In this document: piece by piece, positions 52,149 to 64,000 of the stretch | Layout of the letters: every line of letters begins with the position of its first letter | How positions within the stretch are numbered: position 1 is the first letter of the stretch | Assembly: GCA_035650355.1 (NCBI GenBank) | Contig: DASRHT010000056.1 | Coordinates: 23,624-87,623, forward strand | Direction: 5' to 3' | Length of the DNA: 64,000 nt | Source of the DNA: Ktedonobacteraceae bacterium | GTDB lineage: Bacteria > Chloroflexota > Ktedonobacteria > Ktedonobacterales > Ktedonobacteraceae | Notes under the pieces: model-generated | The model's input: only the letters and a program-made list of their open reading frames with translations | What the model was told of the DNA's origin: nothing | Database searches by the model: none | Position numbers and translations under genes: made by a program

Positions 52149-52756
52149 ACGTTCCTGTTCCTTTCTGCTGCAAATACTGGTATTCATGTGAAGGTATTCT
52201 TCCGAACGTACCGAGAAACGGCAACGCGAGCTTTTCTTTTTCTCCCTCCAGTTTACAAAATATTGATGGGAAAAGCCAGGCGGGAGCGGCTTTTCCAGGG
52301 AACGCGTCTTGTCATCTTCCAGACAAGGATGAGCGCTGAAGCGGACGCGATCAATCGGGTCGGTACGAAGATTGAAGCGTTTGAGGCGCGATCAATGTAT
52401 GCGTGACGTTTGCCATTAGGAGCTGAATGCCAGGAATAATGAGGTTGCGGTTCTTGCAGGCGGGATCAGGGCTGTAGCGGTAGGCATCGAGGGCGGCTAC
52501 CCAGTAGATTGCTCCGCTGGCGAATACCACGGCGTTTGATGGGGCGATATAGATGATGTGCCTGCCTCAAGTCCTGCGTATACAGCAGGAAGCGGCGATG
52601 CTGAGTAATACGGCCAGTGTGGTTGCGCTTATCAGCACAACGGCTTTCATCTCAATATATTTGCTCTTTTTTTGGCTTCATCACAATATCCTGTGTTTTC
52701 TCTTGCTATCTTTCAGAATAGAGATAGCAAAAAAATTTGCAACATCCCGGCTACCG

Positions 52757-53035
52757 AAAATCTGCTCAGGGTTTCTCAAAAGTCGCTGCACGCGCTGACT
52801 CCTCGCGCCTTCGGCGCTCACAGGGAGAGGAAGGTGCTGGCGGTGGGCGCAGCCCACCGCCAGCACCTTCCTCTCGAACGGCTCGCTTGCGAGCCGTTCT
52901 GTCTGAAAAGACCACTTTTGCGAAGCCCTGAGCAGATTTTCAGGGCTTCGCAAAAGTCGCTGCACGCTCTGACGGCTCGCTTGCGAGCCGTTCTGTCTGA
53001 AAAGGCCACTTTTGAGAAGCCCTGAAAATCTGCTG
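52757..53035. repeat. nested/composite palindromic repeat block
   Basis: An 84-bp hairpin unit (52941-53024) is duplicated at 52767-52930, where it carries an 80-bp insert. Perfect 17-bp inverted repeat 52914-52930 / 52941-52957. Perfect 15-bp inverted repeat 52757-52771 / 52927-52941. Confidence 0.85.
52827..52873. repeat. perfect 22-bp-stem palindrome
   Basis: GAGGAAGGTGCTGGCGGTGGGC-GCA-GCCCACCGCCAGCACCTTCCTC. Confidence 0.9.
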
Positions 53036-53043
53036 AAAAAGGC

Positions 53044-53073
53044 TTGACAAAAAAGATGAAAGCGTGGTATATC
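53044..53073 (+). promoter_or_regulatory. candidate promoter of the lys leader (TTGACA-18-TGgTATATC)
   Basis: TTGACA at 53044-53049 and extended -10 TGGTATATC at 53065-53073. T-box Stem I starts about 25 nt downstream. Confidence 0.5.
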
Positions 53074-53097
53074 TTTGACAGCAGAAATATAGACAAA

Positions 53098-53390
53098 AGC
53101 TTTGAAGGGACGAGTAGCAGTTCCCGTGGCTTCCAGAGAGTGGGCGGCTGGTGGAAAGCCCATAGTACACAAACTGCGAAAAAGAACCCTAAGCTGCGAG
53201 AAGAAATCGCGAGACGCGAGAGTAGAACTGCGCCGGACGCCTCCGTAATCGGGCACGCTGGTAGGGGTACATTACGATGGCCCATACCCACTGAGGTTGA
53301 CGCCGTGAGGCATCAGCGAATGAAGGTGGTACCACAAGAGTAAATAACGCTCTTTGTCCTTCCCAAGAGGATAAAGGGCTTTTTTGTTGG
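53098..53390 (+). promoter_or_regulatory. T-box riboswitch leader 1, Lys (AAA) specifier
   Basis: Stem I: GAAGGGACGAGTA, AGAGAG bulge, GGTGGAAAG distal loop. GCAGTT pairs with AACTGC, then GAA-AAA-G (codon 53181-53183). T-box sequence AATGAAGGTGGTACCACAAGAG at 53319-53340. Terminator 53349-53386 plus T6. Confidence 0.8.
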
Positions 53391-53483
53391 CCTGAATCGA
53401 GTCGCCATAAGAGCGTGCCTGATTCTGAGTGTCTTCACCCTTTCGTAGCGCAGTTCGCGCGGCTTTGCCGCGCAAGGAGGGTT

Positions 53484-53532
53484 GTGTGAGTTGTGGAAAT
53501 ATGCGCTTCGCGCATATTTCCACAACTCACAC
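53484..53532. repeat. perfect 23-bp-stem hairpin between the two T-boxes
   Basis: GTGTGAGTTGTGGAAATATGCGC-TTC-GCGCATATTTCCACAACTCACAC. Confidence 0.9.
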
Positions 53533-53632
53533 AGAAGAGCATCGCAGACGCGAGATCCGGTCGCTCATGCAGGGAATCAGGTACACACTAAAACAACATA
53601 TATATAAACCACAATTGCATAGTGAAAAGCTG

Positions 53633-53910
53633 TGAAGGGACGAGTAACGGGAACTGCGGCATGCAGAGAGCGGACGGCAGGTGAAAGGTCCGTATGCGCA
53701 ACCCGTGAAAAAAAACCGGATGCTGCCAGAAGAAATCGCGAGATGCGAGAGTAGAACTGCGCCGGCTTGCTCCCCGTGACCGGAGCGCGTACTAACTGCT
53801 GTACGTTTGAGGTCGATGCTGCGAGGCATCGGCGAATGAAGGTGGTACCACGAGAGCAATGATCGCTCTTCGTCCTTCCAATGTTGGAGGATGAAGAGCA
53901 TTTTTATTTG
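53633..53910 (+). promoter_or_regulatory. T-box riboswitch leader 2, Lys (AAA) specifier
   Basis: GAAGGGACGAGTA, AGAGAG, GGTGAAAGG. ACGGG pairs with CCCGT, then GAA-AAA-A (codon 53710-53712). AATGAAGGTGGTACCACGAGAG at 53835-53856. Terminator GCTCTTCGTCCT..AGGATGAAGAGC plus ATTTTTATTT (53865-53910). Confidence 0.8.
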
Positions 53911-53947
53911 GTTCAGTTGAAATTTGTCTACACATAATACTTCGATT

Positions 53948-53993
53948 CCGCACTCCTGAGCGAAGCTAGCGCGTTAGCAGCGTTGGAGCGCGG
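53948..53993. repeat. GCGAAGC-core palindromic element, copy B (lysW 5' UTR)
   Basis: CCGCACTC-CTGAGCGAAGCTAGCGCGTTAGCAGCGTT-GGAGCGCGG. Confidence 0.85.
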
Positions 53994-54026
53994 AAAGTTT
54001 AAGGGTAGTAAAGGAGAAAAACGAAC

Positions 54027-54188
54027 ATGGCACAGTGTCCCGAATGCGAAGCCGAGATGAGCCTGCAAGGTCTGATGATTGGCGAGATTATCTACTGTCC
54101 CGACTGTAATGCGGAACTGGAGGTGCTGAACCTGGAACAGCCCCAGGTGGGGCTGGCTCCGCAGGTCGAAGAAGATTGGGGAGAATAA
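54027..54188 (+). CDS. lysW: alpha-aminoadipate/glutamate carrier protein LysW
   Basis: 53 aa, below the ORF-track cutoff. MAQCPECEAEM...YCPDCNAEL zinc ribbon and C-terminal EEDWGE tail. AAGGAG RBS. Confidence 0.88.
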   Translation: MAQCPECEAEMSLQGLMIGEIIYCPDCNAELEVLNLEQPQVGLAPQVEEDWGE

Positions 54189-54262: not shown

Positions 54263-55192
54263 ATGCGTTTAGCTATTCTAACATCCCGCATTCGTGTGGA
54301 AGAGAAGTTGTTGATCGAGGCCATGCGGAGGCGCGCTATCGATTTTGATGTGATCGATGATGAAGAACTGCTCTTTGATCTCGCCCGGCCTGATGAGCGC
54401 TGGCGAGCGTACGATGCTGTGCTTTGTCGCAGCGTGAGCCAGTCGCGCGGGCTGGCGGCGCTGCACATCCTGGAGCACATGGGCATTATCGTCTTTAATT
54501 CGGCGGCGGTGACTGCACGCTGTAATGACAAGTTGCTCACGACGCTGGCACTCATGCGCGCGGGCGTTCCCACTCCTCGCACGATGCTGGCATTCGATGC
54601 GCAGCGAGCCGTGCAGGGAATTGAAGAGCTGGGCTATCCGGTTGTGCTCAAGCCCGTGACAGGTTCCTGGGGGCGGCTGCTGGCGCGCATTAATGATCGC
54701 GATGCGGCTGAAGCGGTGCTTGAGCATCAGGAGACGCTTGGCTCGTACCAGCACCACATTCACTATATTCAGCAGTATATCGCCAAGCAATTCGTTGCAG
54801 ACGACCTGAGCGAAGCTAGCTGCGAGAGCGGCGTTGGTCGTCTGAATAGCAAGCTACAACGCGATATTCGCGCCTTCGTCGTGGGTGATCGTACGATCTG
54901 CGCCATCTATCGCACCAGCGAACATTGGGTTACCAATACCGCACGCGGCGCGGTTGCCAGCAATTGCCCCATCTCTGCCGAACTGGATCGCCTCTGCACG
55001 CAGGCGGCGCAGGCGGTGGGCGGCGGTATCCTGGCAATCGATGTACTGGAGGACCCGGAGCGGGGCCTGCTGGTCAACGAGATCAATGCGACGATGGAGT
55101 TTCGCAATAGCATCGCGCCAACGGGCGTCGATATCCCTGATGCGATGCTGGATTATGTGCTGAGCCATGTGCGGGAAGGAGTGGCGCTATGA
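54263..55192 (+). CDS. lysX: RimK-type ATP-grasp ligase LysX (alpha-aminoadipate--LysW ligase) with 23-codon repeat insertion
   Basis: MRLAILTSRIRVEEKLLIEA..., GYPVVLKPVTGSWGR, and RDIRAFVVGDRTICAIYR. The extra segment FVADDLSEASCESGVGRLNSKLQ is encoded by 54791-54859. Confidence 0.88.
   Translation: MRLAILTSRIRVEEKLLIEAMRRRAIDFDVIDDEELLFDLARPDERWRAYDAVLCRSVSQSRGLAALHILEHMGIIVFNSAAVTARCNDKLLTTLALMRAGVPTPRTMLAFDAQRAVQGIEELGYPVVLKPVTGSWGRLLARINDRDAAEAVLEHQETLGSYQHHIHYIQQYIAKQFVADDLSEASCESGVGRLNSKLQRDIRAFVVGDRTICAIYRTSEHWVTNTARGAVASNCPISAELDRLCTQAAQAVGGGILAIDVLEDPERGLLVNEINATMEFRNSIAPTGVDIPDAMLDYVLSHVREGVAL
54797..54844. repeat. GCGAAGC-core palindromic element, copy C (inside lysX)
   Basis: GCAGACGAC-CTGAGCGAAGCTAGCTGCGAGAGCGGCGTT-GGTCGTCTG with a perfect 9-bp stem, followed by AATAGCAAGC as in copy A. 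Confidence 0.9.
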
Positions 55193-56250
55193 GTCAATTG
55201 CGCGTCGCTATTGTCGGCGGATCGGGCTATACAGGCGGCGAGCTGATCCGCCTGCTGCTCTTCCATCCTCAGGTTGAACTGGCGCAGGTGGCATCAAGCA
55301 GCCATGCGGGGCAGTACGTCCATAGCGTCCATCCCAACCTGCGCACGCTCTGCACGCTCAGATTTTGTCATCCAGACGACCTGACGTCATGTGATACGTT
55401 GTTTCTATGTTTGCCGCATGGCGTATCCAGCCAGGATATTGAGCGTTACCGCGGCATTGCCACACGCGTGATCGATCTTTCGGCTGACTTCCGCTTGCGT
55501 TCCGCCGCGCTCTATCAACGCTGGTACGGTGCGCCCCACAACAGGCCGGACCTACTGGCAGAGGCGGTCTATGGCCTGCCCGAACTGCATCGTGAGGAAC
55601 TGCCGGACGCGACGTTTGTCAGTGGCACTGGCTGCATGGCGACCGCCGCTATTCTGGGGCTGGCTCCCCTCTATCGCAGCGGCATCGTCAACATCGCCAT
55701 CCCGCTCGTCGTAGAAGCCAAAGTCGGCTCTTCGGCTGCTGGAGCAACGCCGGGGGCTGGCAGCCATCATCCCGATAGAAGCGGGGCCGTGCGCTCATTT
55801 CAGCCAACCGGCCATCGTCACAGCGCCGAACTGATTCAGGAGCTTGGCACTATCTCCGGTGGCGAGCTTCAGCAGCCCGTCGCCTTCTCCGCCACGGCCA
55901 TTGAACTGGTGCGCGGCGTGCTGATCACGGCTCATGTCTTTGTGCGCGAAAGCCTGGATGAACGCATGCTCTGGCGCATCTATCGCGCAGCCTATCAGCG
56001 CGAACCGTTTATCCGCCTGGTCAAAGAGCGCAGTGGCATCTATCGCTATCCTGAGCCAAAGATCCTGGCGGGCAGCAATTTCTGCGATATCGGCTTTGAA
56101 TACGACGGCGAGCAGCGACGCGTGGTGGTGATGGCGGCTCTGGATAACCTGATGAAGGGCGCGGCAGGCAACGGCGTGCAGGCACTCAATAGCATGTATG
56201 GCTGGGATGAGACGCTTGGATTGAGCTTCCCTGGCCTGCATCCCATCTAA
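55189..56250 (+). CDS. lysY: [LysW]-aminoadipate-6-phosphate reductase (ArgC-like) LysY
   Basis: 353 aa. VAIVGGSGYTGGELIRLL and an ArgC-family catalytic Cys region. ATGA overlap with lysX. Confidence 0.85.
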   Translation: MSQLRVAIVGGSGYTGGELIRLLLFHPQVELAQVASSSHAGQYVHSVHPNLRTLCTLRFCHPDDLTSCDTLFLCLPHGVSSQDIERYRGIATRVIDLSADFRLRSAALYQRWYGAPHNRPDLLAEAVYGLPELHREELPDATFVSGTGCMATAAILGLAPLYRSGIVNIAIPLVVEAKVGSSAAGATPGAGSHHPDRSGAVRSFQPTGHRHSAELIQELGTISGGELQQPVAFSATAIELVRGVLITAHVFVRESLDERMLWRIYRAAYQREPFIRLVKERSGIYRYPEPKILAGSNFCDIGFEYDGEQRRVVVMAALDNLMKGAAGNGVQALNSMYGWDETLGLSFPGLHPI

Positions 56251-56262
56251 AAGGAGCAGACG

Positions 56263-57060
56263 ATGACGCTTGTTGTAAAGATTGGCGGCGGAGCTGGCAT
56301 CGCCACATCGAACATTGTACGCGAGATTGCCCGCTATAGAGCGCAAGGGCAACAGATCGTGTTGCTGCATGGCGGCTCCGACCTCACCAATACGCTCTCT
56401 GAGCAGATGGGGCATGCCGTGCGCACGATTACTTCGCCGACGGGTATGACCAGTCGCTACACCGATAGCGAGACCTTGCGCATCTTCGCGATGGCGACGG
56501 CGGGGCAGATCAACACCGAACTGGTGGCGCTTTTGCAGCAGCAGGGGGTCAACGCACTTGGCCTCGCTGGTGTGGATGGGCGCTTGCTGGTGGGACGACG
56601 CAAGGCCATTGTGCGCTCGGTAACGCCGGATGGTCGCACGCAGATCTTGCGCGATGACTATACCGGCCAGGTTGAGCAGGTCAATGGCGAACTTTTAAGG
56701 CAATTGCTCGATATGGGCTATACTCCCGTGATTGCCCCACTGGCCTTGAGCTACGAGGGCGAGCGCCTCAACGTCGATGGGGACCGCGCCGCCGCTGCCG
56801 TCGCCTCAGCCTTGCAAGCCGACGCGCTGGTAATTATGACCAACGTGCCAGGTCTGCTCGCCGATCCACACAATCCCGCCACGCTCATTCGCACCATTCC
56901 AGCACAGCAGCTTGCTGAATACATGGATTACGCCCGGGGCCGCATGCGCAAGAAATTGCTAGGAGCGCAAGAAGCCCTGCGTGGAGGCGTCCCGCACGTC
57001 TATATCGGCTGTGACTCGCTGGCGGCGGTTCTTAGTGGGGAAGGAACGGTGATTGCGTAA
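56263..57060 (+). CDS. lysZ: [LysW]-aminoadipate kinase (ArgB-like) LysZ
   Basis: 265 aa. VVKIGGGAG, VLLHGGS and the amino-acid-kinase fold pattern. Confidence 0.85.
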   Translation: MTLVVKIGGGAGIATSNIVREIARYRAQGQQIVLLHGGSDLTNTLSEQMGHAVRTITSPTGMTSRYTDSETLRIFAMATAGQINTELVALLQQQGVNALGLAGVDGRLLVGRRKAIVRSVTPDGRTQILRDDYTGQVEQVNGELLRQLLDMGYTPVIAPLALSYEGERLNVDGDRAAAAVASALQADALVIMTNVPGLLADPHNPATLIRTIPAQQLAEYMDYARGRMRKKLLGAQEALRGGVPHVYIGCDSLAAVLSGEGTVIA

Positions 57061-57064
57061 GATT

Positions 57065-57552
57065 TCGTAGGGTCCCGCTTTAGCGCGACCGGCGCGATTT
57101 ATCGCGTTCCCCACGAGAAAACACGGTTTCACCATCGAACTGATGATGCTCAGCACCGCATTTGCATTTGTCGTACAGGATGATTTTGAAGAGAAAGCGA
57201 CACGGGTGATTTTGGGAAAGCGAGCTGATTGTGGACAGAGTGGCTTGCACCGTCCTGCTTGTACGGATGAGGCCAGATGGAAAGCGAGCTGATTGTGGAC
57301 AAAATGGCTTGCACCGTCCTGCTTGTAGGCATGAGGCCAGATGGAAAGCGAGCTGATTGTGGACAAAATGGCTTGCAACAGGGATATTTTCGTGGGGACG
57401 AGCTGATTGCGAATGGAGCGGATCATAGCATGATGATTTTAATTTGGGATAACCATATTGGTAACGGTTGGGCATTGAGGGCGAGATTTGAGGGTTGCGA
57501 AGGGTGGGTAGGCGATAAATCGCGCCGGTCGCGCTAAAGCGGGACCCTACGA
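57065..57552. mobile_element. MITE-like non-autonomous element with 41-bp perfect terminal inverted repeats
   Basis: 57065-57105 (TCGTAGGGTCCCGCTTTAGCGCGACCGGCGCGATTTATCGC) is the exact reverse complement of 57512-57552. No credible ORF inside. Sits between lysZ and lysJ. Confidence 0.65.
57216..57420. repeat. 63-bp tandem repeat, about 3 copies, inside the MITE-like element
   Basis: GGAAAGCGAGCTGATTGTGGACA(A/G)A(A/G)TGGCTTGCACCGTCCTGCTTGTA..GATGAGGCCAGAT recurs at 57216, 57279 and 57342. Confidence 0.9.
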
Positions 57553-57594: not shown

Positions 57595-60180
57595 ATGACT
57601 AACATCATAGATCTGGAGAATACCTACACCAGCGGGGTGTACAGCAAGCGCCCGGTGGCGATTGTGCGCGGGGCGAAGGCGACGCTATGGGATGATGAGG
57701 GGCGAGCGTATATTGATTGCGCGGCGGGGCATGGCGTGGCTAATATCGGGCATGGACGTTCTGAGATAGCGGCTGCGTTGTCGGCTCAAGCGCTGCGGCT
57801 GGTGACGTGCCCCGAAATTCTCTATAACGATACGCGTGCTCACTTGCTGGAACGGCTCGTCCGTCTGACGCCGGAGGGACTTGATCGGGTGTTTCTGTGC
57901 AATAGCGGGACGGAGGCGATTGAGGGGGCGCTCAAGCTCGCTCGTCTGGTGACGGGACGGACGGGGATTGTGGCGACGTTGCGCGGCTTTCATGGACGCA
58001 GCATGGGCGCGCTTTCAGCAACGTGGGAGCCGCATTATCGCGAGCCATTCGCGCCGCTGGTGCCAGGGGTGACGCATATTCGTTACAACAATCTGGCTGC
58101 GGCTGAAAATGCCATCACTGAAGAGACGGCTGCCGTACTGATCGAGCTGGTGCAGGGCGAGGGCGGTGTGCATATCGCGACGGATGACTATATTCATGGG
58201 CTGGCGAGGCTGTGTCGCGAGCGGGGCGCGCTGCTGATTGTCGATGAGGTGCAGACTGGCTTTGGGCGCACCGGTCGCCTCTTCGCCTGCAACCATTATG
58301 ATCTATCGCCTGACATCCTCTGCCTCGCCAAATCGCTGGCCGGCGGCGTACCGATGGGGGCGATCTGCCTGGGGCCGCGCGTGACCGAGAGCGGGCGCAT
58401 CAGCAAAGGCGTGCATGGCAGCACCTTTGGCGGCAATCCGCTGGCCTGCGCTGCTGCACTGGCAACGCTCGACATTATCGAGAGAGAGGCGTTGCCGCAG
58501 AGGAGCGCCGAACTGGGTGCGTATGCTCTGGAGCGGTTGCGCGCATTGCAATCGCCGCTCATTCGCGAGGTGCGTGGTTGCGGTCTGATGATCGGCATCG
58601 AACTAACGCGGCGCGTCCAACCTTATCTTGAGACATTATGTGAACGCGGCATTCTCGCGCTGCCTGCCGGTCCCAACGTCCTGCGCCTCCTGCCCCCGTT
58701 AGTGATCGAACGGGAACAGCTAGATCATGTGCTGGACGTTGTGGCGGAACTATTGCAGGAGGGGGCGCGTGTAGGGGCAGGGCTTGCCCCTGCCCAGCCC
58801 CCTGACGTTGTGGAGGAACTATTGCAGGGGGCTGCGCGTGTAGGGGCAGGGCTTGCCCCTGCCCAGCCCGTTTCCCCTATCCCAGATGCGCCCGCCCAGG
58901 GTACATGCCTGCTACCCAGCAGGGCGGGGGCAAGCCCCGCCCCTACAGAAAACAGGGAGATCGCGTTACTGCATGGGATGCTGACCATTCCGAGCTATTC
59001 CGGTCAGGAGGGGGCGCTGGCGCATTATCTGGTTGAGCAGGCGCAGCAGATGGGGTTGCATGCATATGTGGATGAGGCTGGTAATTTTGTTGCCAGCACG
59101 ACGGAAAGCCATGCAAGTGAGCAACCGTTGGTTCTGCTGGGGCATATGGATACCGTGCGGGGCCATGTTCCGATCAGGTTCGAGGATGGCAAGCTGTATG
59201 GGCGCGGCGCGGTCGATGCTAAGGGGCCGTTGGCAGCGTTTATCTGTGCGGCGGCTCGCATCGCTCATTCGGGGGCAACGCAACGGCCCGTGATTGTGAT
59301 CGGTGCGGTCGAGGAGGAGGCGGCGACGTCGCGGGGCGCGCGTGCGGTGGTGGCGCGGTATCAGCCGGTGGGCTGCGTGATTGGCGAGCCGAGTGGGAGC
59401 CAGGCTGTGACGATTGGCTACAAGGGCCGCTTGCTGGTCGAATGCCATGTGACGCGTCCGCTGGCCCACACTGCCGGTCCGCTGCCATTCAGTTGCGAGG
59501 TGGCGACGACCTTCTGGGAGCGTGTGCGTACACACGCCGACGCATGGAACCGGCGTCATGCCAGTGGTGCGGACAGTAGAGGCTTTATGGCTCTTACGCC
59601 TTCTTTACGCAACATCAATAGCGTGCAGGATGGGCTTGAAGAGCAGACGCGGCTATTGATCGGCTATCGGTTGCCGCCAAATTGCGATATAGTAGAGATA
59701 CGCACGCAGCTAAGCGATTGGGCCGATGAGCTTGACCTGCGCCTGATGTTTTCGGGGGAAGAGGCCGCGTTCCAGACGACGCGCACAACGCCACTGGCGC
59801 GGGCCTTCATCGGCGCTATTCGAGCGAGCGGCGGGCAGCCAGGCTTCAAGTATAAAACGGGTACGTCGGATATGAATGTCGTGGGTCCGGTATGGTTCCA
59901 ACATGCGCAATTTCAGTATCCTCAAACGGATCGTGCTTTGGCACCGGCTCTCACCGCTCCTGAGGGAGAGTATACTCATGAAACCTTGAGGAGTCAAGCG
60001 GAGATGCGTAGGGGACCGAACATCATTGCATATGGGCCAGGAGACTCGCGCCTGGATCACACTCCTCAGGAGCATATCGAGCTTAGCGAGTATCTCCAGG
60101 CTATCGATGTGCTTGAACATGTACTGATGGGCGTTGCAGCGCAGAGGGAGATAGGTCATGAGATCGCCAGCTATTCTTGA
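57595..60180 (+). CDS. lysJ-lysK: fusion of LysJ ([LysW]-aminoadipate semialdehyde aminotransferase, class III) and LysK ([LysW]-lysine hydrolase, M20/ArgE-like)
   Basis: 861-aa single ORF. N-terminal ~395 aa carry DEVQTGFGRTG and LAKSLAGGVPMGA. The linker LQEGARVGAGLAPAQPPDVVEELLQGAARVGAGLAPAQP...RAGASPAPT is encoded by REPs. The C-terminal part carries LLGHMDTV, GRGAVDAKGP and YGPGDSRLDHTPQEHIEL. Confidence 0.8.
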   Translation: MTNIIDLENTYTSGVYSKRPVAIVRGAKATLWDDEGRAYIDCAAGHGVANIGHGRSEIAAALSAQALRLVTCPEILYNDTRAHLLERLVRLTPEGLDRVFLCNSGTEAIEGALKLARLVTGRTGIVATLRGFHGRSMGALSATWEPHYREPFAPLVPGVTHIRYNNLAAAENAITEETAAVLIELVQGEGGVHIATDDYIHGLARLCRERGALLIVDEVQTGFGRTGRLFACNHYDLSPDILCLAKSLAGGVPMGAICLGPRVTESGRISKGVHGSTFGGNPLACAAALATLDIIEREALPQRSAELGAYALERLRALQSPLIREVRGCGLMIGIELTRRVQPYLETLCERGILALPAGPNVLRLLPPLVIEREQLDHVLDVVAELLQEGARVGAGLAPAQPPDVVEELLQGAARVGAGLAPAQPVSPIPDAPAQGTCLLPSRAGASPAPTENREIALLHGMLTIPSYSGQEGALAHYLVEQAQQMGLHAYVDEAGNFVASTTESHASEQPLVLLGHMDTVRGHVPIRFEDGKLYGRGAVDAKGPLAAFICAAARIAHSGATQRPVIVIGAVEEEAATSRGARAVVARYQPVGCVIGEPSGSQAVTIGYKGRLLVECHVTRPLAHTAGPLPFSCEVATTFWERVRTHADAWNRRHASGADSRGFMALTPSLRNINSVQDGLEEQTRLLIGYRLPPNCDIVEIRTQLSDWADELDLRLMFSGEEAAFQTTRTTPLARAFIGAIRASGGQPGFKYKTGTSDMNVVGPVWFQHAQFQYPQTDRALAPALTAPEGEYTHETLRSQAEMRRGPNIIAYGPGDSRLDHTPQEHIELSEYLQAIDVLEHVLMGVAAQREIGHEIASYS
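58735..58872. repeat. 69-bp in-frame tandem duplication (x2), each copy carrying a REP family 1 palindrome
   Basis: GACGTTGTGG(C/A)GGAACTATTGCAGG...GTAGGGGCAGGGCTTGCCCCTGCCCAGCCC at 58735 and 58804. REP cores at 58771-58795 and 58840-58864. Confidence 0.9.
58921..58946. repeat. REP family 1 copy (opposite orientation) in the lysJ-lysK linker
   Basis: AGGGCGGGGGCAAGCCCCGCCCCTAC. Confidence 0.85.
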
Positions 60181-61365: not shown

Positions 61366-62616
61366 ATGGGAACGCTAACGGAAGAGATTTTTAGTTACAA
61401 GCTGGGTCGCGCGGTTCACGAGGGGGAGACGGTGGTGGTGGATGTCGATCATGTGATGAGCCATGATACTTCGACGCCACTGGCAATCAAGGCTTTTCGC
61501 GAACTGACGCGGCACACTAACGGGCGCGTCTTCGCTGCCGACCGCTCGCATATCGTGTTCGATCATATTATTCCCGCCGCTACCATCGCCGCTGCGACCC
61601 TGCATCGCGATATTCGCGGTTTTGCGAGCGAGCAGGGGATAGCGGTCTTGCAAGAGGGCATCTGTCACCAGGTCATGCCGGAGCGCGGCTTTGTGATCCC
61701 CGGCTCGATCATCGTTGGCGGCGACAGTCATACCTGCACCTATGGCGCGCTGGGAGCCTTCGCCACCGGCATGGGTTCGACCGATATAGCCGTGGCCTAT
61801 GCCACCGGACGCACCTGGTTTCGCGTCCCCTCCACGATCAATGTGCATCTCACCGGGACGCTGCCCTTCGGCGTCTATGCCAAAGATATGACCCTGGAGA
61901 TCGTGCGCCAGGTCGGCGTGGACGGAGCTAATTATCGCGCCATCGAGTACACGGGGGAAGTTGTTGAGCGCATGTCCGTGAGCGAACGCTTCACCTTCTG
62001 CAATATGGCGATTGAGATGGGCGGAAAGGCTGGCCTGATTGCGCCCGATGCGATTACGCAGGAATGGCTCAAGGGGCGAACTGAGCGCGAATATCCCATG
62101 CTGGCCGCGCATAACCCGCAATACGAGCGCGTCATAGAGATCGATGTGTCGAAGCTGCCGCCGCTCATCGCCTGTCCGCCTGATGTCAATAATGTCGCGG
62201 CGGTAACAGAGGTCGAAGATGTCAAAATCGATCAGGTCTTTCTTGGCACCTGCACCAATGGGCGGCTTGATGATCTGGCTATCGCTGCCAAGCTGCTGCA
62301 AGGGCGGACGATTCATCCGAGCTTGCGCATGGTGGTGATTCCGGCTTCGCGCGAGGTGTATCTGGAGGCGATGAGGCTTGGCTACCTGGAAACATTCGTC
62401 CAGGCGGGTGCGTCCGTGGGGACGCCTGGCTGCGGTCCCTGCATTGGTCGGCATATGGGCGTGCTGGCCCCAGGAGAGCGCGCGCTCACGACGATGAACC
62501 GCAACTTCACCGGACGCATGGGCGACCCGACGGCTGAAATCTATCTCGGTAGCCCCGCCACAGTTGCCGCGACCGCGCTGACCGGTCATATCACCGACCC
62601 GCGCACGTTTCTTTAG
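61366..62616 (+). CDS. hacA: homoaconitase / 3-isopropylmalate dehydratase large subunit
   Basis: 416 aa. VGGDSHTCTYGALGAF, and GTCTNGR plus GCGPCIG Fe-S ligand motifs. Confidence 0.88.
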   Translation: MGTLTEEIFSYKLGRAVHEGETVVVDVDHVMSHDTSTPLAIKAFRELTRHTNGRVFAADRSHIVFDHIIPAATIAAATLHRDIRGFASEQGIAVLQEGICHQVMPERGFVIPGSIIVGGDSHTCTYGALGAFATGMGSTDIAVAYATGRTWFRVPSTINVHLTGTLPFGVYAKDMTLEIVRQVGVDGANYRAIEYTGEVVERMSVSERFTFCNMAIEMGGKAGLIAPDAITQEWLKGRTEREYPMLAAHNPQYERVIEIDVSKLPPLIACPPDVNNVAAVTEVEDVKIDQVFLGTCTNGRLDDLAIAAKLLQGRTIHPSLRMVVIPASREVYLEAMRLGYLETFVQAGASVGTPGCGPCIGRHMGVLAPGERALTTMNRNFTGRMGDPTAEIYLGSPATVAATALTGHITDPRTFL

Positions 62617-62637: not shown

Positions 62638-63129
62638 ATGAGCCGTATCTGGATGCTTGGCGATAATGTCAATACCGATGTGATCATTCCTGGGCGCTAT
62701 AATATCACGACCGACCGGACGGAACTGGCGCGTCATTGTCTCTGCGAAGTCCTGCCACAGTTCCCGCAGCAGGTGCAGGCGGGCGATGTGATTATGGCGG
62801 GGCATAATTTCGGCTGCGGGTCGTCGCGCGAGCATGCTCCGATTGCGATTGCGGGCTGTGGCGTACAGGTAGTCATCGCACGCAGCTTTGCCCGCATTTT
62901 CTATCGCAACGCCGTCAATATCGGCCTGCCCGTGCTGATCTGCGAGGATGCTGTGCTGGCAAGCTCGGATGGCGACGAGATCAGCGTCGATCTGGAGACG
63001 GGCGTCATTCGCAACCTGACAACGGAGCGCAGCTTCCAGGCAGAGCCGCTCAATCCCTTTGTGGCGCGCATTGTGGCTGCGGGCGGGATTATCAATTATG
63101 TCATTGCACAGGGAGGAACGTTGCAATGA
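62638..63129 (+). CDS. hacB: homoaconitase / 3-isopropylmalate dehydratase small subunit
   Basis: 163 aa. LGDNVNTDVIIPGRY and NFGCGSSREHAP. Confidence 0.88.
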   Translation: MSRIWMLGDNVNTDVIIPGRYNITTDRTELARHCLCEVLPQFPQQVQAGDVIMAGHNFGCGSSREHAPIAIAGCGVQVVIARSFARIFYRNAVNIGLPVLICEDAVLASSDGDEISVDLETGVIRNLTTERSFQAEPLNPFVARIVAAGGIINYVIAQGGTLQ

Positions 63130-64000
63130 ATCATCGCATGTTTCAATCGCCGCCCCATGTGTGCGTGATTGGGGGCGATGATGCCGCACCGGAGGCCATG
63201 CGCCCCACGGTGGCGCTCTTGCGCGAACTGGTGCCTGCTATTCGCTTTGTGGAGACGCCAGGCGGGCGCGAGGCGCAGGAGCGTTACGGCGAACCGTTTC
63301 CGGCAGAGGTACAGGCCGCCATCGATGCCGCCGATTGCACCCTCTTTGGCGCGACGGGAGGACCGAGCAGGCCGATTTTGTGGTATCTGCGCTGGAACAA
63401 GGAGACCTATATCAACGTGCGGCCCGTGCGCTGGTCGCCTGGGTACCGCAGCCCGATGGCGCATCCAGAGCGCATCGATTATGTCATCGCCCGCGACAAC
63501 CTGGAGGGCATGTACCCGCCGCGCGAGGGCGATATTGTGGAACTGGCGAGCCTTGCCAGCAGCGCGACGTGGTGGCAGGCTCCTCCCGTTGACAAGGCGG
63601 GAACGTATGCTTTACGCGTTGTGACCGATGAGCAGATGCAGCGCCTGGCTCAGGCTGCCTGCGAACTGGCATTGCAGCGCCAGGCCGAAGGCTATCCCGG
63701 TCGCGTCACTCTCGGCGCGAAGTACTCGATCATGCCGCGTACCGATGGGCGTTTTCGCACGCTGGTGCGGGATACCGTCAGCCAGTACCCCAGCTTGAGC
63801 TATCAGGAATATCTCATTGACGATCTGGGCCGTCGCATGGTTGCTGCGCCGGAGACGCTCGATGTTGTCGTGCTTTCCAACGAGCATGGCGACATCCTGG
63901 CAGACGTTGCCAGCGGCACCATCGGCGGCCTCGGCCTCTGCCCAAGCGCCTGCTATGGCGAGGATTACGCGTATTTCGAGCCGGTGCATGGTTCCGCGCC
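63126..64000 (+). CDS. hicdh: homoisocitrate/isopropylmalate dehydrogenase family protein (3' end beyond window)
   Basis: ATG 63126 overlaps the hacB stop (ATGA). The frame is open to the window end and so is not in the ORF track. Sequence VCVIGGDDAAPE..., ARDNLEGMY, NEHGDILADVASG and FEPVHGSA. Confidence 0.8.
   Translation, partial: MNHRMFQSPPHVCVIGGDDAAPEAMRPTVALLRELVPAIRFVETPGGREAQERYGEPFPAEVQAAIDAADCTLFGATGGPSRPILWYLRWNKETYINVRPVRWSPGYRSPMAHPERIDYVIARDNLEGMYPPREGDIVELASLASSATWWQAPPVDKAGTYALRVVTDEQMQRLAQAACELALQRQAEGYPGRVTLGAKYSIMPRTDGRFRTLVRDTVSQYPSLSYQEYLIDDLGRRMVAAPETLDVVVLSNEHGDILADVASGTIGGLGLCPSACYGEDYAYFEPVHGSA

Follow-up and report, generated by a model that had tools for sequence, protein, structure and literature searches.

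The leader region and the operon it precedes

The window analysed here, a 64-kb stretch (64,000 nt) of a metagenome-assembled Ktedonobacteraceae genome, carries on its forward strand a promoter, two T-box leaders in series (T-box A and T-box B, predicted to sense tRNA-Lys) and a nine-gene operon that begins with lysW and can be assigned to lysine biosynthesis. The leader region is made up as follows (positions are those of the window; + is the forward strand).

53044–53073, +: promoter, with −35 TTGACA (53044–53049), an 18-nt spacer, −10 TATATC (53068–53073) and a TG at 53065–66 (extended −10)
53093–53390, +: T-box A, the first lysine leader (RF00230; Stem I model R1, 125.7 bits)
about 53093–53194, +: Stem I of T-box A, followed by the presumed Stem II/III, antiterminator and terminator
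53178–53186, +: 3′ side of the specifier loop of T-box A (GAA 53178–80, variable base 53181, AAG 53182–84, A 53185, extra A 53186)
53322–53362, +: antiterminator of T-box A, with the 7-nt bulge UGGUACC (fold −9.2 kcal/mol)
53327–53330, +: UGGU of T-box A, predicted to pair with the tRNA 3′ end ACCA
53349–53385, +: terminator of T-box A, a 13-bp stem (53349–53379) followed by TTTTTT (terminator scan; terminator form −21.2 kcal/mol)
53391–53622, +: A–B spacer, 233 nt, the longest among relatives (median elsewhere 46 nt)
53623–53910, +: T-box B, the second lysine leader (RF00230; Stem I model R1, 117.4 bits)
53707–53715, +: 3′ side of the specifier loop of T-box B (GAA 53707–09, base 53710, AAA 53711–13, purines 53714–15)
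53838–53878, +: antiterminator of T-box B (fold −13.1 kcal/mol), with UGGU at 53843–53846
53865–53909, +: terminator of T-box B, a stem (53865–53899) followed by ATTTTTATTT (terminator scan; −27.3 kcal/mol)

A covariance scan with the Rfam T-box model (RF00230), run in E-value mode, gave two significant full-length matches, at 53093–53364 for T-box A (86.4 bits, E = 4.6e-19) and at 53623–53880 for T-box B (69.2 bits, E = 1.2e-14), each spanning model positions 1–219. Two complete T-boxes in series had been placed at 53098–53390 and 53633–53910 by an earlier sequence-only reading of this DNA, and these positions hold to within about 10 nt. A scan of the whole window with Rfam 15 at the gathering threshold, which for RF00230 is an operational cut-off of 93 bits, returned no match; we rejected this result as a true negative and regard it as an effect of the cut-off, as the E-value scans match the T-box twice. 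The E-value scans found no further T-box anywhere in the window, no other riboswitch was found there, and the L-box (RF00168) gave no match in the window at E ≤ 0.001 or in 52900–54100 at E ≤ 10.

Both leaders contain the AGUA and AGAGAG motifs, the GGUG.AA distal loop and the T-box sequence AAUGAAGGUGGUACCAC, so that every Stem I motif listed in the sequence-only reading, and the conserved T-box sequence, was found in each; the specifier loops contain GAAAAAG and GAAAAAA, respectively. In the alignment to the Rfam model, the stretch that would form the Stem IIA/B pseudoknot and Stem III contains insertions, and some of its pairs are non-canonical. Both leaders belong to the T-box family by every criterion of sequence and structure tested.

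Downstream of T-box B, lysW is preceded directly by the ribosome-binding site AAAGGAG and followed by eight further genes of the same strand.

54027–54188, +: lysW, 53-aa amino-group carrier (TIGR01206, 57.5 bits, cut-off 53.2)
54263–55192, +: lysX, [LysW]-aminoadipate ligase (TIGR02144, 325.7 bits, cut-off 275.6)
55189–56250, +: lysY, ArgC-type reductase (TIGR01850, argC equivalog, 383 bits)
56263–57060, +: lysZ, [LysW]-aminoadipate kinase (NF010659, 332.4 bits, cut-off 223)
57595–60180, +: lysJ–lysK fusion (transaminase and [LysW]-lysine hydrolase), 861 aa
60158–61300, +: homocitrate synthase (best match TIGR02146, 387 bits, under the equivalog cut-off of 413.55)
61366–62616, +: homoaconitase large subunit (TIGR01343, hacA family, 555.7 bits)
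62638–63129, +: homoaconitase small subunit, hacB (TIGR02087, 203 bits)
63126–64000, +, running past the window end: Iso_dh-family gene, presumed homoisocitrate dehydrogenase (PF00180, E = 1.3e-44); its start overlaps the hacB stop

LysW, LysX, LysZ and the LysK part of the fusion exceed NCBIfam equivalog cut-offs. In the fusion, residues 3–389 match NF042418 and the argD-family model TIGR00707, of which TIGR00707 was passed and the LysJ equivalog cut-off was not reached, and residues 453–767 match the LysK model NF003367 (366.5 bits, cut-off 363). LysX is 100% identical to a protein from a Ktedonobacteraceae metagenome-assembled genome (MAG). A gene for 2-oxoadipate aminotransferase (lysN) does not lie within the window. 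NCBIfam and Pfam matches thereby bear out the earlier proposal that lysW, lysX, lysY, lysZ and the remaining alpha-aminoadipate genes follow the leaders, and they identify the nine genes as an operon for the lysine-specific alpha-aminoadipate/LysW pathway.

The operon has some features of its own. Its proteins are poor in lysine (0.5–1.9%, 33 lysine codons in 2800, comprising 24 AAG and 9 AAA), the other long open reading frames (ORFs) of the window having mostly 2–4%; biosynthetic enzymes tend to be sparing of their own product, and the low lysine content is consistent with this. The linker between the lysJ and lysK parts is of low complexity and contains a duplicated VGAGLAPAQP motif. Between lysZ and the fusion gene, a 488-nt element (57065–57552) is bounded by 47-nt inverted repeats that are 96% complementary, holds three tandem 64-nt repeats and looks like an insertion of the miniature inverted-repeat transposable element (MITE) kind inside the operon. 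No further copy of its terminal repeat turned up elsewhere in the window or in any of 80 related loci, not even in L002, which has a LysX of 97% identity. An 86-aa ORF at 57277–57537 lies within these repeats and has no Pfam match.

Competing helices and the specifier codon

The related loci were collected by a LysX-based search with one genome per GTDB species, which gave 80 loci (numbered with the prefix L), and leaders were sought in them with a hidden Markov model made from the two window leaders, with a T-box core pattern and with the Stem I covariance model R1, built on 84 aligned leaders. These searches returned 94 T-box Stem I elements in total, each of which lies just upstream of lysW or lysX on the coding strand. 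For Stem I, RNAalifold predicts 17 pairs on 84 sequences, 15 of them with compensatory changes; AGAGA is invariant in the 84 leaders, and GAGTA and GGTG.AA are invariant or at least 90% conserved at nearly every position.

Folding of both window copies gives a weak antiterminator with a UGGUACC bulge and a stronger terminator that shares its 3′ strand; in T-box A the 5′ arm of the terminator is the 3′ strand of the antiterminator. The intrinsic terminators with a U-tract that the sequence-only reading had described were recovered by the terminator scan (53349–53379 followed by T6, and 53865–53899 followed by a T-run), and in both copies the terminator is the more stable of the two competing structures. 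When the antiterminator and terminator helices were defined from window T-box A and scored over 55 leaders, 97.0% of the cells of the antiterminator helix were paired, with compensatory changes present, and 97.5% of those of the terminator helix; sliding the 3′ partner by 1–3 columns as a control lowered pairing to 42–68%. Within the shared strand, one column changes in step with its partner in the antiterminator and with its partner in the terminator: the triplet is G-C-G in most leaders, but seven, window T-box A among them, have A-U-A. Such three-way covariation in the alignment directly supports each of the two mutually exclusive structures. Since 94 homologous leaders stand upstream of lysW or lysX in other genomes and their helices covary, the features of the leader go far beyond chance.

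Next, the alignment bears on which codon the leaders present. The 3′ strand of the specifier loop sits between the covarying upper and lower helices of Stem I. Among the 84 leaders, the S-turn GAA is followed by a variable base (A in 49, T in 26, C in 5 and G in 4), the three bases after it are AAG in 48 and AAA in 35, and the base 3′ of this triplet is A in 71 and G in 12, after which the lower helix begins. Model-guided alignment of the full set gave AAG in 58 and AAA in 36, that is, one or the other in 94 of 94 lysW leaders. The correct register is thus most likely GAA-N-AAR-R, with the specifier one base 3′ of its earlier placement, and T-box A most likely presents AAG (53182–53184) and not AAA; the A-run of T-box B reads AAA in any register. 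Of the specifier as first proposed, GAA-AAA-purine with the lysine codon AAA in both leaders, lysine stands for both and AAA stands for T-box B, but neither the register nor the AAA of T-box A does.

A specifier for an amino acid other than lysine was weighed at this point. In this alternative, T-box A would present AGA (Arg), the triplet reached by counting from the lower helix, or else the codon would directly adjoin GAA. LysW-type systems make ornithine or arginine in some archaea, which would fit AGA, the loop strand of T-box A (GAAAAAGAA) permits AAA, AAG or AGA, and AGA stands in frame just before the last loop base in 46 of 84 leaders. Against this, AAA replaces AAG in 36 leaders, a change that is synonymous for lysine and would be an arginine-to-lysine swap under the AGA reading, and the homocitrate synthase, homoaconitase, Iso_dh-family gene and aminoadipate-specific lysZ mark the lysine branch. 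The register directly after GAA was rejected, as it gives the stop codon UAA in 26 leaders, CAA in 5 and GAA in 4. We see barely any chance that the specifier is not lysine.

On the acceptor side, UGGU is present in both window bulges and in 62 of the 70 leaders of relatives scored by pattern, the remaining 8 having UGGC. In A copies of the Dictyobacter type (for example L004, L008, L010 and L015), GGUGGCAAC replaces GGUGGUACC in the T-box bulge. Genomes with such non-pairing bulges may either encode a tRNA-Lys that carries G73 or accept the mismatch. There is no tRNA gene in the window, and a scan of 60 loci (L002–L061, all Ktedonobacteria included) found no Ktedonobacterial tRNA-Lys. The sole tRNA-Lys recovered, from the Anaerolineae locus L058, has the anticodon CTT and ends ...GGCTC-A; with its discriminator A it fits UGGU and AAG. 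This gene (318–393 of the Anaerolineae MAG locus) lies about 240 nt upstream of a lysW that has no T-box, an odd juxtaposition.

Tandem leaders across the Ktedonobacteria

Among the 80 loci, every Ktedonobacteria locus that includes sequence upstream of lysW has a lysine leader there, and nearly all of these have the tandem pair, including the cultured Ktedonobacter racemifer, K. robiniae, Ktedonospora, Dictyobacter, Tengunoibacter and Thermogemmatispora. The tandem arrangement occurs in 37 of the loci, and the median length of their spacers is 46 nt. Single copies occur in four Ktedonobacteria (L013, L016, L018 and L035) and in 11 more distant Chloroflexota loci (L051–54, 56, 62, 65 and 69–72), mostly labelled Thermomicrobiales or Sphaerobacteraceae, with L051 and L052 labelled Ktedonobacterales. 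No leader was found in the loci from Dormibacterota, Anaerolineae and Phycisphaerae, in L066 (labelled Saccharimonadales) or in L055 (an unclassified bacterium). In most genomes the A copies are closest to the A copies of other genomes and the B copies to B copies, which indicates that the duplication is old and that both copies have been maintained. Some pairs, those of Ktedonobacter and Ktedonospora, have been homogenised to 86–90% identity within the genome. The tandem pair is the ancestral state for most of the class. Apart from the lysine leaders, L037 carries a divergent, weakly scoring T-box Stem I on the minus strand (2484–2601) between two tRNA-Ala genes; its specifier loop, GAACUCA, probably presents the leucine codon CUC.

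One could suppose that a single copy is functional and that the other is a decaying duplicate without a regulatory role. The single-copy loci imply that one copy suffices, and T-box B has the lower Rfam score (69 vs 86 bits). Both copies, however, retain the codon, the AGAGA bulge, the distal loop, UGGU, the antiterminator and a terminator with a U-tract; the A-type and B-type are each conserved as orthologues across genera and both supply covarying pairs; and a dead copy with an intact terminator would block expression. We therefore consider a decaying copy extremely unlikely.

A second possibility is that the two T-boxes poll different isoacceptors, A (AAG) responding to tRNA-Lys(CUU) and B (AAA) to tRNA-Lys(UUU), which would make the pair an AND gate across isoacceptors. 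Different lysine codons do occur in the window, in L002 and in about 10 of the 37 tandem loci (AAG/AAA in nine and AAA/AAG in one), and AAG is commoner in the lysW leaders (58 of 94) than in the lysine T-boxes of TBDB (22 of 170). But the two copies have the same codon in 27 of the 37 tandem loci (AAG/AAG in 17 and AAA/AAA in 10), so isoacceptor splitting cannot explain the conservation of the tandem, and tRNA-Lys(UUU) usually reads AAG by wobble, which also counts against it. As an account of the pair it seems quite improbable.

The promoter and spacer bear on whether the two leaders are transcribed in series. The operon has a promoter of its own, since the genes upstream of it (Zincin_1 and a glyoxalase-like gene) lie on the opposite strand. 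The sequence-only reading had noted a good promoter there, and both its position and its sequence are conserved in every related locus: TTGACA-17/18-TATAxx, usually with a preceding TG, ends 25–40 nt before T-box A in 44 of the 44 loci examined. The window copy itself fails the strict −10 rule of the promoter scan. The best promoter scores have a median of 10.5 upstream of T-box A and of 7.0 in the A–B spacers, and the scan found no site in the window spacer and nothing comparable in the spacers of relatives. If T-box B nonetheless had its own promoter in the spacer, the leaders would belong to partly separate transcript populations and would not be strictly serial; in favour of this are the length of the window spacer, the best promoter-like site in it (GGTACA-17-TATAAA), which ends about 21 nt before T-box B, and the CCACAATTGCATA motif, conserved before T-box B in close relatives. 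The short spacers of relatives with their near-background scores speak against it, and T-box B would still gate every transcript, second start or not. A separate start for T-box B is very unlikely in our estimate.

Of the window spacer, about 190 nt have no counterpart in the close relative L003, as an alignment with L002 and L003 shows; they include a perfect 24-bp hairpin (53483–53533; −44.4 kcal/mol, z = −8.8), which would be transcribed upon each read-through of T-box A. The hairpin was rejected as a terminator, as no T-run follows it on either strand, and its matches to Rfam microRNA families were set aside as generic long-hairpin matches far under the gathering score. The spacer holds no credible gene, just short unannotated ORFs on both strands. 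We treat the segment of about 190 nt as an inserted palindromic repeat module, outside the switch, of the type found at 52750–53040. That intergenic stretch consists of stacked palindromic modules with 59-nt and 41-nt direct repeats and 18–30-nt inverted repeats, among them a perfect 24-bp hairpin at 52825–52875; these modules are elements of the repetitive extragenic palindrome (REP) or MITE kind, typical of a repeat-rich genome. The motif ACAAC(T/C)G(C/A)ATA stands directly before many A and B copies, with CCACAATTGCATA before window T-box B (53610–53625), and appears to belong to the duplicated unit.

Proposed serial control by tRNA-Lys and known systems

We propose that two class I (transcriptional) tRNA-Lys T-box riboswitches in series very probably gate the nine-gene alpha-aminoadipate/LysW operon. 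RNA polymerase would start at the single conserved promoter (about 53080) and transcribe T-box A, whose Stem I would offer AAG (53182–84) to the tRNA anticodon while the distal AGAGA bulge and the GGUGGAA loop dock the tRNA elbow. With uncharged tRNA-Lys, the free ACCA end would pair with UGGU (53327–30) and stabilise the weak antiterminator, and polymerase would pass 53349–53385; with charged tRNA-Lys, the more stable terminator would form and the transcript would end. Read-through transcripts would be tested again at T-box B (AAA at 53711–13, UGGU at 53843–46 and the terminator at 53865–53909), and only those passing both checkpoints would reach lysW. As both checkpoints have to be passed, read-through would approximate the product of two probabilities; basal expression would then be low, and the response to a fall in tRNA-Lys charging would be steeper. 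Observed directly were the sequence and structure anatomy, both competing helices with their covariation, the lone promoter, the genes of the operon and conservation throughout the class. The tRNA binding, the sensing of charging state and the multiplicative behaviour would follow from the established T-box mechanism and from published reasoning on tandems (PMC12452182).

Several findings weigh against this proposal. Both window leaders score under the curated Rfam gathering score. The 3′ loop strand of T-box A has 9 nt, as compared with 8 nt, and counting back from the lower helix gives AGA (Arg). The UGGC of eight leaders and the bulge of the Dictyobacter-type A copies do not pair with the discriminator A (A73). 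Complementarity to anticodon and discriminator is based on general knowledge and on one Anaerolineae tRNA-Lys(CUU). Last, the unusual 233-nt spacer with its −44 kcal/mol hairpin could affect elongation or RNA stability between the switches. None of the rivals weighed above fits the comparative data as well as two serial tRNA-Lys checkpoints. We also rejected a leader peptide of the Thermus kind, since the one frame through the leader that begins with ATG has its start at 53059, between −35 and −10, and would therefore be off the transcript.

Serial checkpoints might also act as a specificity amplifier. Lysine shares a mixed codon box with asparagine, the Bacillus cereus lysK T-box is partly induced by uncharged tRNA-Asn, and this cross-talk has been proposed as the cause of the rarity of lysine T-boxes (PMC2916919). 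With a second checkpoint, discrimination against the near-cognate tRNA-Asn would be squared, and the preference for AAG over AAA might work to the same effect. Pairs with two different codons, such as that of the window, might in addition poll both tRNA-Lys isoacceptors. As the reason for the tandem, beyond a sharper response, we hold this rather unlikely.

The mechanism itself is known, and so is the tandem arrangement; the combination of features is what is unusual. Of value are the pathway controlled, its conservation throughout the class, the AAG specifiers and the natural series of single and double leaders. The sequence-only reading knew of no tRNA-Lys-sensing tandem T-box on a LysW operon, and we likewise found no published link, although tandem T-boxes as such are well known in Bacillota. 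A full-text literature search, whose coverage excluded two key comparative T-box papers, returned nothing linking a T-box with lysW, aminoadipate or Ktedonobacter; the Chloroflexi rows examined of a RegPrecise-based survey contain no lysine T-box, and the 'lysW/lysX' named in papers of the RegPrecise type are unrelated transporter genes and were discarded. Automated databases may well already hold some of the leaders, since 3 of about 27 leaders from 15 loci exceed the Rfam cut-off (L046 A, L015 A and L072, the A copy of K. racemifer included). Most lysW leaders score under the Rfam 15 gathering threshold, so pipelines that apply it will miss them, and the extra base after GAA leads rules that read the GAA-adjacent triplet to call UAA, CAA or GAA, not lysine.

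If the proposal is right, the T-box regulon would gain a whole pathway, with alpha-aminoadipate/LysW synthesis under tRNA-Lys charging and not under an L-box or a leader peptide as in Thermus. The rarest T-box specificity would be the rule in one Chloroflexota class, of which cultured members exist (Ktedonobacter racemifer, Dictyobacter and Thermogemmatispora). The single leaders of the 11 distant Chloroflexota loci, the doubles of the Ktedonobacteria and the same-codon and mixed-codon pairs form a natural series for studying tandem function; the purpose of tandem T-boxes was named an open question by a 2020 review (PMC7583486).

Compared with class I T-boxes in general (RF00230; for example tyrS and glyQS of Bacillus subtilis), the lysW leaders share the Stem I AGUA/GAA specifier loop, the AGAGA bulge, the GGUGNAA distal loop, the UGGN bulge and an antiterminator that competes with an intrinsic terminator. 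They differ in their lysine specificity, the extra variable base between GAA and the codon, the Chloroflexota host and the sub-gathering scores. Lysine is the rarest T-box specificity in TBDB, with 170 of 23,535 entries (148 AAA and 22 AAG). Known lysine T-boxes precede lysK or lysS (Bacillus cereus group, Clostridium beijerinckii and Symbiobacterium) or the lysine permease gene BH0807 (B. halodurans) and have the same lysine specifier; that of B. cereus lysK responds experimentally to uncharged tRNA-Lys (PMC2916919, PMC2494555), and T-box control of LysRS is documented in four species only (PMC2916919). They are single, sporadic and placed on a synthetase or transporter gene, whereas the lysW leader precedes a whole biosynthetic operon and is conserved in its lineage.

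The tandem T-boxes of Bacillota (trp operon, ilv-leu, thrS/thrZ and met transporters) have the same two serial sensor-plus-terminator units behind one promoter, and the rationale given for them in a 2025 survey is that two uncharged tRNAs are required for read-through (PMC12452182). Among the tandems of that survey are those of trp, branched-chain amino acid, thrS, hom/thrB/thrC and thiamine genes and of amino-acid/methionine ATP-binding cassette (ABC) transporters; the enriched tandem pairs in its Table 2 come from Bacillota only and include no lysine genes, and for a Ktedonobacterales genome the matches listed are thrS entries only (PMC12452182). Unlike these tandems, the window pair has lysine specificity, belongs to the alpha-aminoadipate/LysW pathway and to Chloroflexota, and shows A-to-A and B-to-B orthology.

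The L-box (RF00168), found on genes of the diaminopimelate (DAP) pathway and on lysine transporters, has the same role of RNA-level feedback on lysine supply through transcription attenuation, but it binds free lysine, whereas the lysW leader is predicted to read tRNA-Lys charging. A parallel in the same pathway is that of Thermus thermophilus, whose alpha-aminoadipate lysine cluster Tsubouchi et al. are said to have found in 2005 to be controlled by leader-peptide attenuation. The Thermus leader reportedly serves the same pathway, responds to the same signal, the availability of charged tRNA-Lys, and has the same output, transcription termination. The sensor is different: in Thermus a ribosome is said to stall on the lysine codons of a leader peptide, whereas the lysW T-boxes, which have no credible leader ORF, are predicted to bind the tRNA directly with their RNA.

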